From Protoeuglena noctilucae (taxonomy: Eukaryota), in NCBI GenBank assembly GCA_958009085.1, contig OY253678.1:248001-312000 (forward strand): 64,000 nt of DNA, given 5' to 3'. Below, one piece after another: positions 36,426 through 43,228 of this stretch (its first letter is position 1; each line of letters begins with the position of its first letter). Position numbers and translations under genes: made by a program. The notes under the pieces are model-generated. The model was not told the origin of the DNA and did not search any database. It was given only the letters and a program-made list of their open reading frames with translations.

Positions 36426-39400
36426 ATGTCAGGCCCGCCGGACCCCTGGGACCCCGTGGCGGGGCGAAAGAGCGTCGGGGAGGGACGGCGCGGCGCGAAA
36501 AGCCGCATGGGAGTAGAGGGGCGAGCGGACTCTCTGGCAACGGAGGAGTTCCACGCGGCGACGGCCCTGGAGAGGATCGGTTGGGGCGTGGGCCAGGTGC
36601 CGTGGTCGTCGGCCCACGGCGCCGTCTCTCACGGCCACCCTGGCGAAGAGGAGGATCACCTGGGGTCATTCAGGCGCCAGAATCGACCCATGACCGCCGC
36701 GCCGGGCGGGTGGCGCGGTGCCGGGGGCGAGGACGGCAGTGTGGGTCCCAGCATGTCGCCCACCGGGGGACCAAGGCAGGGGCCCCATGCAAAGCAGCCG
36801 CGACCCTCGACAGCCCCGGCCGGCCCTCGGTCTCGCCGCGTGCAGTCGGTGGAGTCCCGAGCACGCCAGAGCGTCGCCGCAAGGCTAGGTGAGATCCACC
36901 CCTCCAGCGGGACAGCCTTGCTGCTGTTGTCTGGCCATGCTCAGCGCTGCAGCTATTGAGAAGGTGCGTGCCTTAACTCACGCAGGCCACCTCCCCGCGG
37001 CACTGGCGACCGCGCACGCCCGGCAGGTGCTGCTAGGGGGTTCCGTGGAGGGTGCCAAGTTTGAATCGGAGGCCAAGCGAAGGGGCCGCATCAGCAGCAG
37101 CTTGAAGGGTTCGACGGAGCATAGGGGCAGCCCGCAGCCCATGTACGCGGAGGAGATGTTCCGACCGCAGAGCTCCTCAGGTACGGCACAAGGCTGGGAA
37201 CGTGGCAGGTCACTCACAGGTCTGTTGCGACAGCCATGCGCTGTCTGTGCGTGTTGATGTTGTTGTTCCTACCAACAGGGCCTTGTGCGACTTCGCCCGC
37301 ACATGTCCTGCCCGCAGTGACCCAGCAGCTCTTCTTCCAGAGCCGCTCGCGGCCGCATTCGGCGCACCCGGGGACGGGCGGCCGCATGGTGACGTCTTGG
37401 GCGGACGCGGCGGCGGAGGCGGACGCGGACGCCGAGCGCGTGGCCATCCAGCGCCAGTTGCTGCGCGTCGCGGGGCCCATCGACCTGCAGTCGGCCGAGC
37501 ACAAGCAGATTGCCGACACGGCCGTGTGGGCGGCCGAGGAGGGCAAGATGCGGGGGACCATGGTGCGTGTCTGTTGCCCTCCACCTGGCACACGGTGGCG
37601 ACTGTCGGATGTCTTTTGCCAGGCCCCACGATGATTGCGGTGGTGACCTGCGAGGCGTGGCCGCTGCAGATGCACTGGGAGGCGACGTTGGAGAAGTCCC
37701 CCAACATCGCCGTGTACGCGGGCCCCGTGGCCAAGCTGGAGCGGGCGCTGCTGAACCTGCAGGGCCGCAAGCCCGAGATCGTGGGGAAGATCGTCGAGAT
37801 ATGCAAGCTCCTCATCGTCGTGGGGCCGCCCAAGAACGAGCAGGACGGCTCCCGCTTCGACAGGTGACGCGGGGGACATGAGCCCTGTGGCGTGCGGACA
37901 CTGCCAGGTGTGGCAAGCCCTTCTGCACATGCGCCCTTCTCCACGCCTCTCCTAAGGTCACCTGGCGTCCCTCACGCGCAGGTTCCTGGCCCTGTGCACC
38001 AGCGAGGGCATGCACCAGCGCCTCGAGTGCCCCACGGCAGAGACCTTGGAGATTCTTCTCACCCATGTCGCGCCCGACCTGGGGTCTGACCAGCAGTTCA
38101 AGGTCCTGCCCAAGGCGAGCCGCAGTCTAGGTCTTCCTGCCGTTGCCGCGCTGGGCTGACTTGACACAACGAGCAGGTGCCTTGTCACTTGGTTCGTCGC
38201 CGTTGCCACCGCCCATCCTCACCAAGCCCTGCCCCGCCTCCCACGCAGCCGGGGGCGGCCAGCGACCCGCGCCTCACGGTCCTCGCCTTCCTGCTTTTTT
38301 TGTTCAAATTCATTGAGAACCCCGCGCTCATGATGTCCGACAGCCAGCGTGGGCAGATGACGGCCCTCTCCGCGATGGCCTGCTGCTGGAAGTTCCTGCG
38401 AAGGCGAGAGAGGGCGCTTTGAGTGATCACATTGTTTTGCTCGGCTGAGAGATCCCACCCAGTTTGACAGCGCTTGACTTCACCTCTCACTCAACCCGTA
38501 CTGTAGGAGCGGCGGTGTGCGATGCGCCTCCTTATTCTGCTTGCAGCGACACGGTGCCTCACCCGGACTACGGCTGGCTAGCCATGGTGCAGATGGACGC
38601 GATGCTGACCAAGTGGCTCGGCGCGACCGACCACGCCGTCGAGGCGTCGGTGTTTGGTGAGTAATGAGCCGCAATGGCCGCGCATTCGCTGCCACCAACC
38701 AGTCCCCTGCAAGGGCCTCCACCCGCTTCGAGCTGCCGGCCTTTTCTAGACAATATCTGTGTACATGTCTTGTCACACTCACCTCCCACCCCACCACCAT
38801 CCCCGCAGCCCGCGGTGCCTGCGACGTCCTTGCGTCCATTGTCAAGCGCCTCCTGCAGCTGCACCCCGTGCTCCACGAATCGCGGGCCTACACGTCCCTT
38901 CGGCAGCACCTGGTCCAGATGTTCAGCCGGGGGGAGATGGAGAGGAGGAACTGGAGCAAGCTCATCTGCCGCAACATCGGTGATCGTGCGGCTGCGTCTC
39001 TGTGCAGTGGGTCGAGTGGATCTTTGTCAATCAGTATGGGTCTTTTGTGCTAATGTGACGTCATGCCGCTCACTGCGCCCACCCACTCTGTCCGCCCTTC
39101 CCACCCCGCCTCGCAGGCAAGATGATGTCGGTGCTGCCGGTGCCCCTGGCTCAGCTGGACAAGTCGGGGCAGCGGGGGCCCCTCACCCCGGGGGACAAGC
39201 TGCGGGGATCCCAGAGCTTTGCCCTGGACGCCAAGGGGTCACCCCGGCACCCGCGCCTGGCGTGCACGAGCTCCCCCGAGGCCCGGGCGCGGCCGCGGTC
39301 GGCGCGGGGGAGGCTGCTGGAGGGGGTGGAGGTGGAGGACGCGGCGTCTGTGGCCGTCCGCAAGTCGGGCATCCTCCTCGGGCAGCTGCCGGACTTCTTG

Positions 39401-40667
39401 ACCGCAGCCATCCCGACGGACGAGGGCGCCCACGTCAACCGCAGTGGAAAGGAGGCGCCTGCCGTCGCGGGTGTGGGCGCGGGGGCGACTGGCGCGCCCA
39501 AACCCACGCGCACCGCGCTGGTGTCGCAGGTGCGCCGACCGCCCACCAACTCGGCCGCATGTCACATTGGCTGCACGCCGACTCGGCACGATCCTTGCCT
39601 CACAGCGCCCTCGCCCGCCAGCTTCTCTGCGTTCCCCTGCGACCATTCCTGCGTCCGTTCTCCGCCCCAGGTGTCGGTCGCCGCCCACCGCGTGCAGCGG
39701 AGCCGGCAGGACAGCGTGGGCAGCGTGGCAAGCAACACCCAGGGCCGCGCGCACCGTATGGTGGTGGCGGGCCACGTGGCGGGCACGGCGTGGCGCATGT
39801 CCATGACCCGGGGGCCCCGCGATCCCGGCGCAGGCGCCCCGGGCACGCCGCGCGCCGTGTCCCTGGCGCACTCGCACTCGCAGTCGCTCCAACGGAGTGC
39901 GGGCGAGGTGGGCGAGGGTGCAGCCGGTGCCTGGTCGGCATCAGCGTCCAAGGCAAGGGCCACGGCGCTGTGGAGCCAGGCGGAGCACGCGGTTGCGGGG
40001 TCGGGGGTGGGGCCGATGGGGAGCGGGGGCACGGAGGGCGTCGTGCCGCGGAGCCTGGCCCGGGCCGTGACGGCCAAGGAGCAGACGGTGGCAGAGGCGG
40101 TGGCGGCGGCGACGAGGAGGGCGCGGGAGGTGCGGGATGCCCGGGAGGCGCGGGAGGTGGAGAAGGAGCGGGAGAGGGAGCGCGGGAAGGCGCGTGTGTC
40201 GCGGATGCTGCTGACGGGGGCGGGGGTGGGCGTGGAGGTGGAGATCATGCCGTCGCGGCAGATCCGGCGTCCCCGGCCGGCCTCCGTGGCCCTCAAGTCC
40301 TCCGCCCGAGTCTCTGCCATGGTCCTGCGGTGAGCTTTTGTATAACGCGAGGTGCACGCGATTGCTTTCTGAGGCGAGTAGGCCTGGCGGATGGGAGGTG
40401 CATCTTTGCCCACGTTCTCGCAGTCCGGAGGACTTCTTTGGGGAGGGCGAGGACATGATGGCGGAGGAGCATGAGCAGATGGAGCTCCATCGCCTGGCTC
40501 GCACGAGGCGCAACTACTTCATCACCGAAGCCATGCAGGGCAACGAGATGGCGCTGCGGCTTTTCGACGGGAAGGTGGGGTGGAACCCCGACGGGGTGCT
40601 GGCGCAGCGGAGGCGACGGCTTGCACGGGTGCAGCAGTCGGCGCAGACGGGCAAAGGCGGCATGTAG
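36426..40667 (+). CDS. Large uncharacterised multi-exon protein (helical core, long disordered C-terminal part)
   Basis: In-frame exons with canonical and GC-AG junctions (e.g. MHWEATLEKSPNIAVYAGPVAKLE, FLLFLFKFIENP, FSRGEMERRNWSK). Last exon ends GKGGM*. Confidence 0.65.
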
Positions 40668-40685
40668 GGGAGAGGCTGGGGAGAA

Positions 40686-40749
40686 GCTTCAACGTTTAAC
40701 ACACACGATTCGTGATGCTTCAACGTTTAACACACACGATTCGTGATGC
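40686..40749 (+). repeat. Perfect 2 x 31-bp tandem repeat in a 3' UTR
   Basis: gcttcaacgtttaacacacacgattcgtgat at 40686-40716 and 40717-40747, followed by gc. Confidence 0.95.
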
Positions 40750-40877
40750 AAGCACACAAGTTTGCATAGACAAAGGAACCTAGTCCAGGGTGGCAATTCT
40801 CATACGCCACTAAGCCGCCTACACACGGCCAACTGCACCTAAGGAACTGATGATCTTAGACAACAAAAAACATCCCT

Positions 40878-41507
40878 CTACGTCCGCTCCGAGGACCGGC
40901 CCCCGAGCAGGGGCGCCCCAATGCTCTCGTCGTGGCCTGGCCCGACGCTGCTGGCCGCAGACGAGGCAGGGCCGTACTCCTCCGCAGACGGGTGCACCCT
41001 CGCCGCGCCGCCCCTCGCCCGGGACGCCGCCCGACCCAGCCGCGCCGCATCCGATTGCCGCCCGCTGATCAGACCCACACCTTCGTCCGCAGCTGCGTCA
41101 TACGGCCCATCACCGCTCCGCGTCTCTGCATGCTGCTCGGCGGGGGCCACGCGGCGGCTGACCCCCGAGTGCTGCCGCGCGGGCGGGGCTCCCCGGGCTC
41201 CACCGCGGCCGAAACCCTGGCTCGGCCCCTGCTCCCCCGGCTGCAGGGTTGCAGCGCTCTCCGCCACCTCCACTCTCGCAGTCACCACGGACGGAGTGAG
41301 GGGCTCCCTAACATCCACCAAGTTAGCCCCGCCCTGCGCCTGCTTCGGGTCGCCGTCCCGCGCATGCGAGCGCACGCTCGACTCCGGCACCCACGACCGG
41401 TCCAGTGTCAGACCCGGGGCCTCCGCTGCGGCCCCGCTCCTTCCCGGCGTTAGGTTGCTTGGCCGCCTCAGCTCGTTCACTGCCGGTTCAGCTGGGCGGC
41501 CTGCGCA
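40878..41507 (-). CDS. Putative trans-frame (-1) C-terminal extension of HIR, 209 codons, predicted disordered
   Basis: Stop-free from the slip site to the TAG at 40880-40878. Mostly G/C-ending codons, no ATG. Composition turns AT-rich immediately after the TAG. Confidence 0.6.
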   Translation of the reverse strand, partial: CAGRPAEPAVNELRRPSNLTPGRSGAAAEAPGLTLDRSWVPESSVRSHARDGDPKQAQGGANLVDVREPLTPSVVTARVEVAESAATLQPGEQGPSQGFGRGGARGAPPARQHSGVSRRVAPAEQHAETRSGDGPYDAAADEGVGLISGRQSDAARLGRAASRARGGAARVHPSAEEYGPASSAASSVGPGHDESIGAPLLGGRSSERT

Positions 41508-41513
41508 AAACCC
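41461..41513 (-). other. Candidate -1 programmed ribosomal frameshift signal (slippery heptamer plus stem-loop)
   Basis: mRNA: GCG GGU UUU | GCGCA | GGCCGCC-CAGCU ...16-nt loop containing UGA... AGCUG-A-GGCGGCC. Confidence 0.6.
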
Positions 41514-42691
41514 GCCCGGATCTGCGCCGTCACGTCGGCGACGTTGCCGGGCGTGTGGGGCATGAAGATGGCGTGGTTGCCCGCCGTCGTGCCCACGTCC
41601 TTCAGCATATCGAAATACTGCGCGGCAGGGCGCCAGGTGTGTCGTCATGAGGCCTAAGTGGCCACAACGATGGTGCGGCGCCTTGCCTGGGGGCCTGCCG
41701 CCGTGCACCAGCAGTCAGCATGCAGGTCTCACCTGCGTCATCAGCATGAGCTCCAGCACATCCCGGCTGTTGACGCCCTGCACTTGGTCGGAGAACTGCA
41801 TGACCGAGTCCCGCAGACCGTTTACGATCGCCTGCCTGCGTGCACCGGCGGCACGGGGCACACGTTTGTCAGCGCGGCAAGGGCCCACCCAGACCCAACA
41901 GCAAGCCCAGACAGACGCAGCAGCGGGCCCACACAGACGCAGCAGCGGCCATAAACAAGGCGCTGCACTGCTCCCCGCCCGCGCTCGCCTCTGCCGCGCA
42001 ATGCCCTGCCCCTGGAGGTACTTGGACTCGGCGTCCGCCTCGGCGGCCTTCACGACGCGTATCTTCTGCGCCTCCGCCTGCTCGTACGCCGCCTGGCGCA
42101 GCCGCTGGGCCGCGTTGATCTCGTTCATCGCCGCCTTGACTTTGCTCTCCGGGTCGATGTCCGTCACCAGCGCCTGGAGGATGGTGTAGCCGAAGCTTGA
42201 CATGGCCTTGCTCAGCTCCGCCTTGACGGCGCCCGCGATCTCCACCTTGCTGACGAACACGTCGTCCAGGTTCATCCTGGGGACTGTCGCACGGACCGTG
42301 TCGAAGACGAACGCGGTGATTTGCGCGTGCGTGTCGCTCAGCCGGTAGTAGGCGTCGTGGACCTGGTCAGGCATGACCTGCGTGCAGAGGGGCGGCCTTG
42401 CTGGGACCCTGGTTGGCTAACACGCAGCGCCTGCTGGCCGTCTGTTGCGCAGCGCCTGCTCGCCTGGTACTGCAGGGAGACGACGACCTTAACGAAGACG
42501 TTGTCGTTTGTTTTGGTCTCCACGGTCACAGACAGGGACTGGATCCTCAGGGACACGTTCCCACTGATGCGGTCGCCGACGCAGCAGAAAACCCAGTTGA
42601 GCCCGGGGCCCACGAGGCGGTTGTACTTGCCGCACCGCTCGACGACGCCTACGGTCGACTGCTCCACGCAGGCGCAGCACAGGCTCGTCAT
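41477..42691 (-). CDS. HIR: Hypersensitive-induced response (HIR) SPFH/band-7 protein
   Basis: [101 protein letters not shown]. Four exons. Confidence 0.95.
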
Positions 42692-43228
42692 CCTGCCTCA
42701 GCCGCTGCGTGGCGAGGCGAAAACATGCACGCTATGCTTCGCGGCAGAGCCTTGCGGTTCACCCACACCCTTCCAGAGGGAAGTAGGCCACGCTTCCCCC
42801 CCTTGCGCCGGCCGCACGAAGAATATCAGGATATGAGTGCGCGGCAGACGCAGAACAAGGCTTGTCGTACTCACCGCCGCGCGCAACCGAGCGCAAACGA
42901 GGCCACCTGGTTGACCGTGCCTTGCCACACGCAGTTGCTACAGATGAGCGGCGGGGTACCTATTCAGACCAACAAGTACCTCGCGGTTGTGTCCATCACA
43001 GGAAGGGGAGGAGCTTGGACTTCACCGTTCGCTCGCTCGACGCTTTTGCCCTAAGTGTCGCTGTCACTGTGTCAGGCGGGGGCTGCCTTTGGAATGGATG
43101 CCCTCGCTGGACCGGCGTGATCATATTGGCGAGCGAGCGGCGCCCTGCACTCATCCCCGAGGCCACTGCCCGACTGTGCCCGCATTTCCCCTCAAGCGGG
43201 GCGGCGGGGGCCGGAGCGGAAGTTAGGG

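Follow-up and report, generated by a model that had tools for sequence, protein, structure and literature searches.

Conserved programmed ribosomal frameshifting in the −1 direction (−1 PRF) is known from few chromosomal genes of non-mobile origin, and the vertebrate exceptions derive from mobile genes, according to the excerpts of the review by Atkins et al. 2016 (PMC5009743) used here. We describe a candidate case in the HIR/band-7 gene of the green alga Protoeuglena noctilucae (NCBI GenBank assembly GCA_958009085.1, contig OY253678.1, positions 248,001 to 312,000; this 64,000-nucleotide stretch is called the window and supplies the positions given below). At the end of this gene, a slippery heptamer and a hairpin around the stop codon probably divert some ribosomes into a 209-codon extension. 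The same cassette is present in a second species, represented by a metagenome contig (L001).

The nearest parallel is offered by PaYIP3, a Rab-GDI dissociation factor of Podospora anserina and other Pezizomycotina in which −1 frameshifting produces a longer isoform (Malagnac et al. 2013, PMC3777964; all statements on PaYIP3 follow excerpts of that paper). Both PaYIP3 and HIR are ordinary nuclear genes, not mobile ones, and in both the short form is the conserved family protein. In both, a long, domain-less 3′ open reading frame (ORF) confined to one clade lies in the −1 frame, the mRNA matches the gene with no editing or splicing, and a structure just 3′ of the shift site (stem-loop or pseudoknot in PaYIP3) is conserved across species. 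The signals differ in kind: PaYIP3 uses the non-canonical U_UUU_UCC, a spacer of 2 nt, and probably a pseudoknot (PMC3777964), whereas HIR has the canonical G_GGU_UUU, a 5-nt spacer, and a simple hairpin. They also differ in host gene and lineage. The long form of PaYIP3 was detected experimentally, and its extension can be aligned across many fungi and shows compensatory changes; the HIR case is known from the sequence of two species.

Viral −1 PRF cassettes share with the HIR locus the class of heptamer, the range of spacer length, a GC-rich downstream stem, and a 0-frame stop soon after the shift site, as described in the review excerpts (PMC5009743). Unlike them, HIR is a nuclear gene that has introns, is spliced, and keeps its synteny, and its predicted product carries a low-complexity tail, not a polymerase. 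Luteoviruses such as barley yellow dwarf virus (BYDV) use GGGUUUU. The mammalian −1 PRF genes derived from mobile elements, PEG10, PNMA/Ma3, and RTL1, resemble HIR in being chromosomal and, as proposed for HIR, in gaining an extended product by a −1 frameshift, but they inherit a retroelement gag-pol signal. In HIR, by contrast, the upstream ORF encodes a protein of the universal SPFH family, and no relative of the extension is detectable. Antizyme, as far as the excerpts of PMC1874602 describe it, likewise combines conserved recoding with a non-mobile cellular gene and a 0-frame stop beside the shift site, but it shifts in the +1 direction, senses polyamines, and has the frameshift product as its only functional protein. 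In the literature that we searched (open-licence papers and preprints), no −1 frameshift was reported for a nuclear gene of green algae or plants, nor any frameshifting for HIR.

A candidate frameshift cassette at the HIR stop codon

The HIR exon-2 ORF matches Pfam Band_7 (PF01145; E 8.5e-17), and over the 129 residues of exon 2 the identity is 78% with P0006, the nearest protein in the databases, 75% with a protein cluster from Chlorella sp., and 67 to 72% with other green-algal HIR proteins. The product ends where its homologues end (the closest, P0006, terminates ...RAGFAQAAQIK), so an earlier note on this DNA, written from the letters alone, was right to take the 0-frame end for a normal, complete HIR C-terminus.

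Ten codons ahead of this stop, the minus strand reads ATC CGG GCG GGT TTT GCG, and the in-phase G GGU UUU that the earlier note had pointed out is there (Table 1). This heptamer uses the only TTT of the HIR gene (1 of 10 Phe codons) and one of its two GGT (among 16 Gly codons). The excerpts of Atkins et al. 2016 (PMC5009743) count G_GGU_UUU with the heptamers on which eukaryotic ribosomes shift most readily. The predicted stem that begins five nucleotides later has 12 bp with A41468 bulged and is present in both the minimum free energy (MFE) and the centroid folds, and the 0-frame TGA (41479-41477) lies within its loop; both features had been claimed beforehand and are borne out. The 41-nt hairpin alone reaches −23.6 kcal/mol, and an 81-nt fold around it reaches −42.6 kcal/mol (z −3.4), a stability attained in 0 of 200 shuffles. 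The 45 nt 3′ of the spacer fold at −25.3 kcal/mol, a value equalled in 0.8% of 3458 background windows of 45 nt. The two strands of the window together contain 52 heptamers of this class, and that of HIR alone has a comparable hairpin downstream.

We sought relatives by scanning metagenome contigs with the last HIR exon, which gave 50 loci. An in-phase heptamer at the Gly-Phe site was found in a single one, L001; two others carry an unrelated CCCTTTT 30 codons upstream. The more distant loci L002 to L005 read AAC GGG TTC and thus are without the heptamer; the HIR hairpin is missing from them as well. A scan of genome contigs returned five bacterial SPFH loci only, and a scan of viral contigs returned none.

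L001 comes from another species: it agrees with the window at 92 of 119 C-terminal HIR residues (77%), its introns lie at other positions, and its GC content is 81%. It has the same convergent neighbor gene as the window. Its heptamer is identical, in phase (GCG GGT TTT, at 403-409), and followed by a 5-nt spacer. Its stem is a perfect 11 bp formed from the same two arm sequences (−27.1 kcal/mol) and encloses its own stop, a UAG, in a 19-nt loop, unlike the 16-nt loop of the window. Between the two species the stem differs only by the loss of one G and by a C-to-U change in the 5′ arm, the U giving a partner to the A that is unpaired in the window; loop and flanks differ, and no alignment is possible past the 3′ arm. 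With the 5′ arm held fixed, a contiguous stem of at least 11 bp arose in 0.56% of 20000 shuffles of the downstream 70 nt of L001. Just 6 of the 118 codons in the L001 HIR fragment end in A or T, and three of these lie in the cassette (GGT, TTT, and GCT, the last with its T paired to the A left bulged in the window); the P of such clustering is 0.002 to 0.008 for blocks of 7 to 10 codons set in advance.

Transcript and coding-type periodicity beyond the stop codon

Four RNA runs (one study) and several DNA-type runs contain 96 to 99% of the sampled words of the stretch, and contigs from three RNA runs (X1, X3, X4) and one DNA-type run were aligned to 40300-42900. The three coding-region introns are absent from the RNA contigs of X1, X3, and X4, and the 5′ untranslated region (UTR) intron is absent in X3 and X4; the contigs therefore represent real mRNA. 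Across the last HIR exon and the extension, RNA contigs cover 40720-41617 (X1), 40733-41576 (X3), and 40717-41576 (X4), all with 0 mismatches, 0 gaps, and no joint, and the DNA contigs are letter-identical to the window over the same stretch. The earlier note had named three ways in which its reading could fail, namely, an mRNA ending before 41000, an extra base fusing the two frames, and a splice into the −1 frame. The RNA contigs extend to 40720, RNA and DNA contigs hold 0 other letters and 0 gaps, and contigs of the three RNA runs contain no such splice, although minor isoforms could escape contigs.

The −1 frame runs open for 209 sense codons (41507-40881) before its TAG, as the earlier note had read it, and is without any Met. 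GC content falls to 0.495 in 40700-40899, just past this TAG, in agreement with the AT-rich turn noted earlier, and the extension codons do mostly end in G or C (GC at third codon positions [GC3], 0.80 to 0.81). No AUG occurs in the −1 frame across the whole mature HIR mRNA, and in L001 the 134 −1 codons upstream are free of Met. In a window of 68% GC, the open −1 frame alone is weak evidence (P about 0.03 to 0.08).

In the L001 extension, A/T letters number 25, 37, and 5 at −1 codon positions 1, 2, and 3, and GC3 is 0.972, compared with 0.949 in its HIR; third-position A/T as low was seen in 0 of 2978 open dinucleotide shuffles. The 184 nt past the L001 −1 stop show no periodicity. The window extension counts 46, 68, and 37 A/T by position, with third positions as low in 5 of 1601 open shuffles and matched jointly with second positions in 0 of 1601. 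Periodicity in L001 is already significant 25 to 50 codons past the hairpin (6/10/1; P 0.01), while in the window the first 50 codons past the hairpin are marginal (14/20/9; P 0.055). Under a position-specific base model trained on the sure coding sequence of each species, the −1 frame scores best of six in both, at −5.611 versus −5.774 bits/codon for the next best in the window and −4.601 versus −4.691 in L001. The distance from the −1 stop to the stop of the convergent neighbor is 210 nt in the window and 183 nt in L001, as against 809 and 716 nt, respectively, from the 0-frame stop; at L002, which lacks the heptamer, about 138 nt separate the convergent stops. These distances in the relatives lend indirect support to the argument of the earlier note that a GC-rich 3′ UTR of 600 nt would be out of place here.

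Table 1. Features of the HIR locus in the window
Feature	Position	Strand	Remarks
Slippery heptamer G_GGT_TTT	41513-41507	−	X_XXY_YYZ phase, codons GCG, GGT, TTT
Spacer	41502-41506	−	5 nt; likewise 5 nt in L001
Stimulatory hairpin (predicted)	41461-41501	−	5′ arm 41501-41490; 16-nt loop 41489-41474; 3′ arm 41473-41461
−1 frame extension	40878-41506	−	209 sense codons (41507-40881, the first beginning at the last base of the heptamer) and TAG 40880-40878
Contiguous RNA over last HIR exon and whole extension	40720-41617	−	X1 contig record 2, joined to 41733-41808 (spliced exon 3)
HIR/band-7 coding region	41477-42691	−	4 coding exons, 286 aa; uninterrupted spliced translation, RNA contigs, Pfam, homologues with 70 to 78% identity
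HIR coding exons	42691-42464, 42377-41989, 41835-41733, 41617-41477	−	ATG at 42691; last exon includes TGA
HIR 5′ UTR intron, GT..AG	42705-42874	−	Ends 13 nt upstream of ATG; joint 42704/42875 in X3 and X4 RNA contigs
31-nt repeat	40683-40744	.	Two tandem copies, 97% identical; AT-richer gap between extension stop and convergent neighbor
Convergent neighbor, last exon and stop	40423-40667	+	Intron 40329-40422 spliced in RNA; orthologue of L001 convergent neighbor

Frameshifting weighed against other explanations

Heptamer, spacing, hairpin, conservation in L001, −1-phased periodicity, lack of AUG, and colinear mRNA form together the combination expected of a −1 frameshift, and no other single mechanism known to us would predict the whole of it. 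Judged from sequence, a conserved −1 PRF cassette that yields an extended HIR isoform is the probable reading of the locus. The frameshift and 209-residue extended isoform proposed in the earlier note are thus supported, by the colinear contigs, the L001 cassette, and the −1 periodicity in both species. In its description of a regulated short/long HIR pair, "regulated" goes further than the evidence, none of which bears on regulation.

In the mechanism that we propose, most ribosomes would terminate at the UGA and release the 286-aa HIR. A fraction, pausing at the 12-bp hairpin while GGU occupies the P site and UUU the A site, would slip back one base on G_GGU_UUU and then read the −1 frame for 209 codons. 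The long product would consist of HIR residues 1 to 277 followed by a low-complexity tail of ~209 aa, ~486 aa in total. We infer that ribosomes do shift here at some frequency and that the long form is functional.

A number of results weigh against this reading. The protein sequence of the extension is not conserved: BLASTP between the window and L001 extensions aligns nothing but their initial 6 residues, where they overlap the HIR coding sequence, and the two are not significantly more alike than shuffles (Smith-Waterman local P, 0.17; semi-global P, 0.24). Among 1.84 billion representative proteins, the window extension matches only the locus itself, and a protein homology search with the L001 extension found no homologue. 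Length of the frame counts for little: in the window, 7.9% of randomly chosen positions and frames are open for at least 209 codons, and so many codons are reached by 116 of the 1859 frames from stop to stop. When the extension stretch was shuffled 5000 times with dinucleotides kept, any one frame remained open in 3% of the shuffles. Two plus-strand frames cross the same stretch with 0 and 1 stops, and at the 81% GC of L001 every frame is open, so its open −1 frame is uninformative. In both species the runner-up under the base model is the antisense frame that shares third positions, and it scores almost as well. By synonymous-codon choice, the window extension scores −0.11 bits/codon compared with +0.21 (standard deviation, 0.19) for sure coding sequence, the other five frames score about like the −1 frame, and the GC3 of the extension (0.81) falls short of that in sure coding sequence (0.90).

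As to conservation of the cassette, the metagenome scan gave a single closer relative with DNA, L001. The earlier note had looked to relatives for a conserved heptamer and for covariation in the stem. Heptamer, spacer, and stem are indeed kept in L001, but covariation is not seen: RNAalifold on the pair yields 13 pairs, of which 0 show two-sided compensatory changes. Conservation of the hairpin is accordingly conservation of sequence, which another function could explain as well, and the heptamer-free loci L003 to L005 fold a different, unrelated 10-bp hairpin around their own stop. The two species also have rare codons in common outside the cassette, namely, Ile ATT in GQGIARQR (window, ~41998-41996; L001, 182-184) and Gly GGT in VNGLRD (window, ~41817-41815; L001, 212-214), which persist despite 90 to 95% GC3 and flank the position of window intron 2. 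Retention of GGT and TTT in the heptamer is for this reason only modest evidence. The RNA evidence, finally, comes from contigs of one study, in which rare isoforms are dropped and strand is not recorded.

Many of these points would fit with 41476-40720 being a long, GC-rich 3′ UTR, the stop-codon hairpin a conserved regulatory RNA element (acting in termination, stability, or protein binding), and the heptamer retained through the conservation of Ala-Gly-Phe and the inheritance of a few rare codons. Open frames as long as this one are common, two antisense frames are open or nearly so, codon choice fails to single out the −1 frame, the extensions have neither protein conservation nor homologues, the stem lacks formal covariation, and further rare codons are shared outside the cassette. 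We nonetheless regard an untranslated region as unlikely, because it leaves unexplained the −1-phased periodicity found in two species at the shuffle frequencies given above, the concentration of A/T at positions 1 and 2 of L001 with 97% GC at position 3 and no periodicity after the −1 stop, and the fact that in both species the periodic stretch ends at the normal distance from its neighbor. The periodicity might instead be owed to a plus-strand gene or exon sharing third positions (in the window, ORF 40843-41565), or to a decaying relic of a coding region. In favor are the openness of that antisense frame (240 aa), its score just 0.16 (window) and 0.09 (L001) bits/codon below the −1 frame, and a third-position preference for C over G like that of true genes. 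The plus-strand frame, however, enters the last HIR exon by ~90 nt in the window, whereas in L001 it ends 140 nt before reaching the HIR stop, so the structure of such an antisense gene would be inconsistent between species. RNA of the neighbor has no splice into the frame, and the frame's higher A/T content at position 1 than at position 2 and its translation rich in Ser, Thr, Cys, and Pro resemble the antisense of coding sequence. A relic would not be expected to retain the 97% GC3 of L001 with A/T held at positions 1 and 2, and we consider both versions of this explanation very improbable.

The extension might also be coding but reached through a minor alternative splice or a rare change at the RNA level, with heptamer and hairpin incidental or serving splicing. 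Excision of 41480-41308 (173 nt; donor 41480, acceptor 41309/41308, right phase) would join ...NRQ in frame to the extension, and both species have a GT that overlaps the stop codon; periodicity is just marginal over the first 50 window codons past the hairpin, and contigs are unable to rule out minor isoforms. Yet no such joint appears in contigs of the three RNA runs, though annotated introns are removed wherever the contigs reach them. Periodicity in L001 is significant 25 to 50 codons past the hairpin with no plausible acceptor ahead of it, a tiny intron from the stop-codon GT to the AG of the 3′ arm would differ in length between the species out of phase step and be too short, and the conserved heptamer, spacer, and hairpin are left without explanation. 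We consider a route of this kind quite improbable.

Several further candidates were rejected. An assembly error or missing base conflicts with RNA and DNA contigs that are exact over 40720-41617 and with the same frame relation in the independent L001 assembly. Stop-codon readthrough would meet a second 0-frame TGA three codons past the first in the window. An internal AUG or intron-borne start is represented by one ORF call (P0002), which starts at an ATG in intron 3 that is spliced out in all three RNA runs. The tiny intron between the stop-codon GT and the AG in the hairpin 3′ arm would have lengths of 14 nt (window) and 21 nt (L001), a phase mismatch and too short in either case. Transcriptional slippage is unlikely, as the runs are just G3 and T4 and the RNA contigs hold no indel.

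Frameshifting remains the reading that we prefer, and it would have consequences for the HIR protein. SPFH proteins assemble into many-subunit rings or domes (excerpts of 10.1101/2025.04.21.649849). With many subunits per assembly and a fixed shift rate, each HIR assembly could contain a fixed minority of tail-bearing subunits, which is speculation. The only motif that the two extensions share is GAPLL, near both C-termini (P about 0.04, post hoc). We are evenly divided on the fuller proposal that this is a conserved, canonical −1 PRF in an ordinary nuclear green-algal gene of housekeeping type and non-mobile origin, setting the ratio of plain to tailed subunits in an HIR/SPFH cage, with the sequence of the tail free and its presence, frame, and GAPLL kept.

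If true, this would be the first green-lineage case of its sort within the literature searched and would show a viral-type cassette used by cellular genes of another eukaryotic supergroup. It would also provide a natural, compact (~60 nt) frameshift signal for algal ribosomes and imply an SPFH/HIR scaffold made in two forms at a set ratio, with a bearing on how ring assemblies are built and decorated. For annotation the locus calls for caution, because gene finders would label the stretch a long 3′ UTR or invent an intron.

The gene neighborhood and minor observations

Database searches with the extension gave little beyond the results above. Its 90% cluster has three members, one of them with a single-residue difference; Pfam gave no family for either extension or for the antisense ORFs of the window extension, neither extension had a usable match in the ESM Atlas, and no meaningful match came from Rfam (best E, 0.98).

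Of the three introns within the HIR coding region, two have GC donors (GC..AG, both starting GCGAGC; 42463-42378 and 41988-41836), while intron 41732-41618 and the 5′ UTR intron have GT..AG borders; all four are spliced in RNA contigs. L001 lacks window introns 2 and 3. Its HIR fragment begins with ~75 nt of near-pure C (within 1-78) immediately before a CAG acceptor, either an extreme polypyrimidine tract or an assembly artifact, and the intron with this C-run lies inside the equivalent of window exon 2. Some 30 nt of HIR exon 4 (41547-41578) have a DNA word depth about twice that of the flanks (117 versus 49 to 55), and RNA and DNA contigs all break there except one in X1. This stretch probably has a second genomic copy, perhaps in an HIR paralogue.

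The convergent neighbor (38668-40667, plus strand) is 75 to 78% GC, rich in low complexity, and has no Pfam match. Its C-terminal part (...MELHR...) is conserved in the L001 neighbor, and the arrangement of HIR and neighbor is therefore syntenic. The 31-nt tandem repeat lies between the two genes, and all RNA and DNA contigs break at it; one RNA contig of X4 has one copy fewer (a 31-nt skip). Each repeat copy contains CGTGTGTGTTAAAC on the HIR sense strand, a motif that recurs in L001 downstream of its extension. A longer form, CGTGTGTGTT[A/C]AAC, also on the HIR sense strand, occurs at ~40733-40720 and 40702-40689 in the window (minus strand) and at ~1066-1080 in L001, that is, 100 to 190 nt 3′ of the −1 stop in both species within surroundings that are unalignable, and it may be part of a 3′-end signal. 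The poly(A) signal TGTAA is not enriched in the window (16 versus 12.3 expected), and none lies near the HIR locus.

The window as a whole has a GC content of 67.8% and also encodes a plastid-type sigma factor and an AP2-domain gene, in keeping with a green alga. SPFH proteins from Saccharibacteria/Patescibacteria and other bacterial metagenome-assembled genomes (P0086, P0115, and others; loci L051 to L055) are ~70% identical to HIR exon 2, as similar to the window HIR as many green-algal HIRs are, a hint of transfer between bacteria and eukaryotes or else of contamination.

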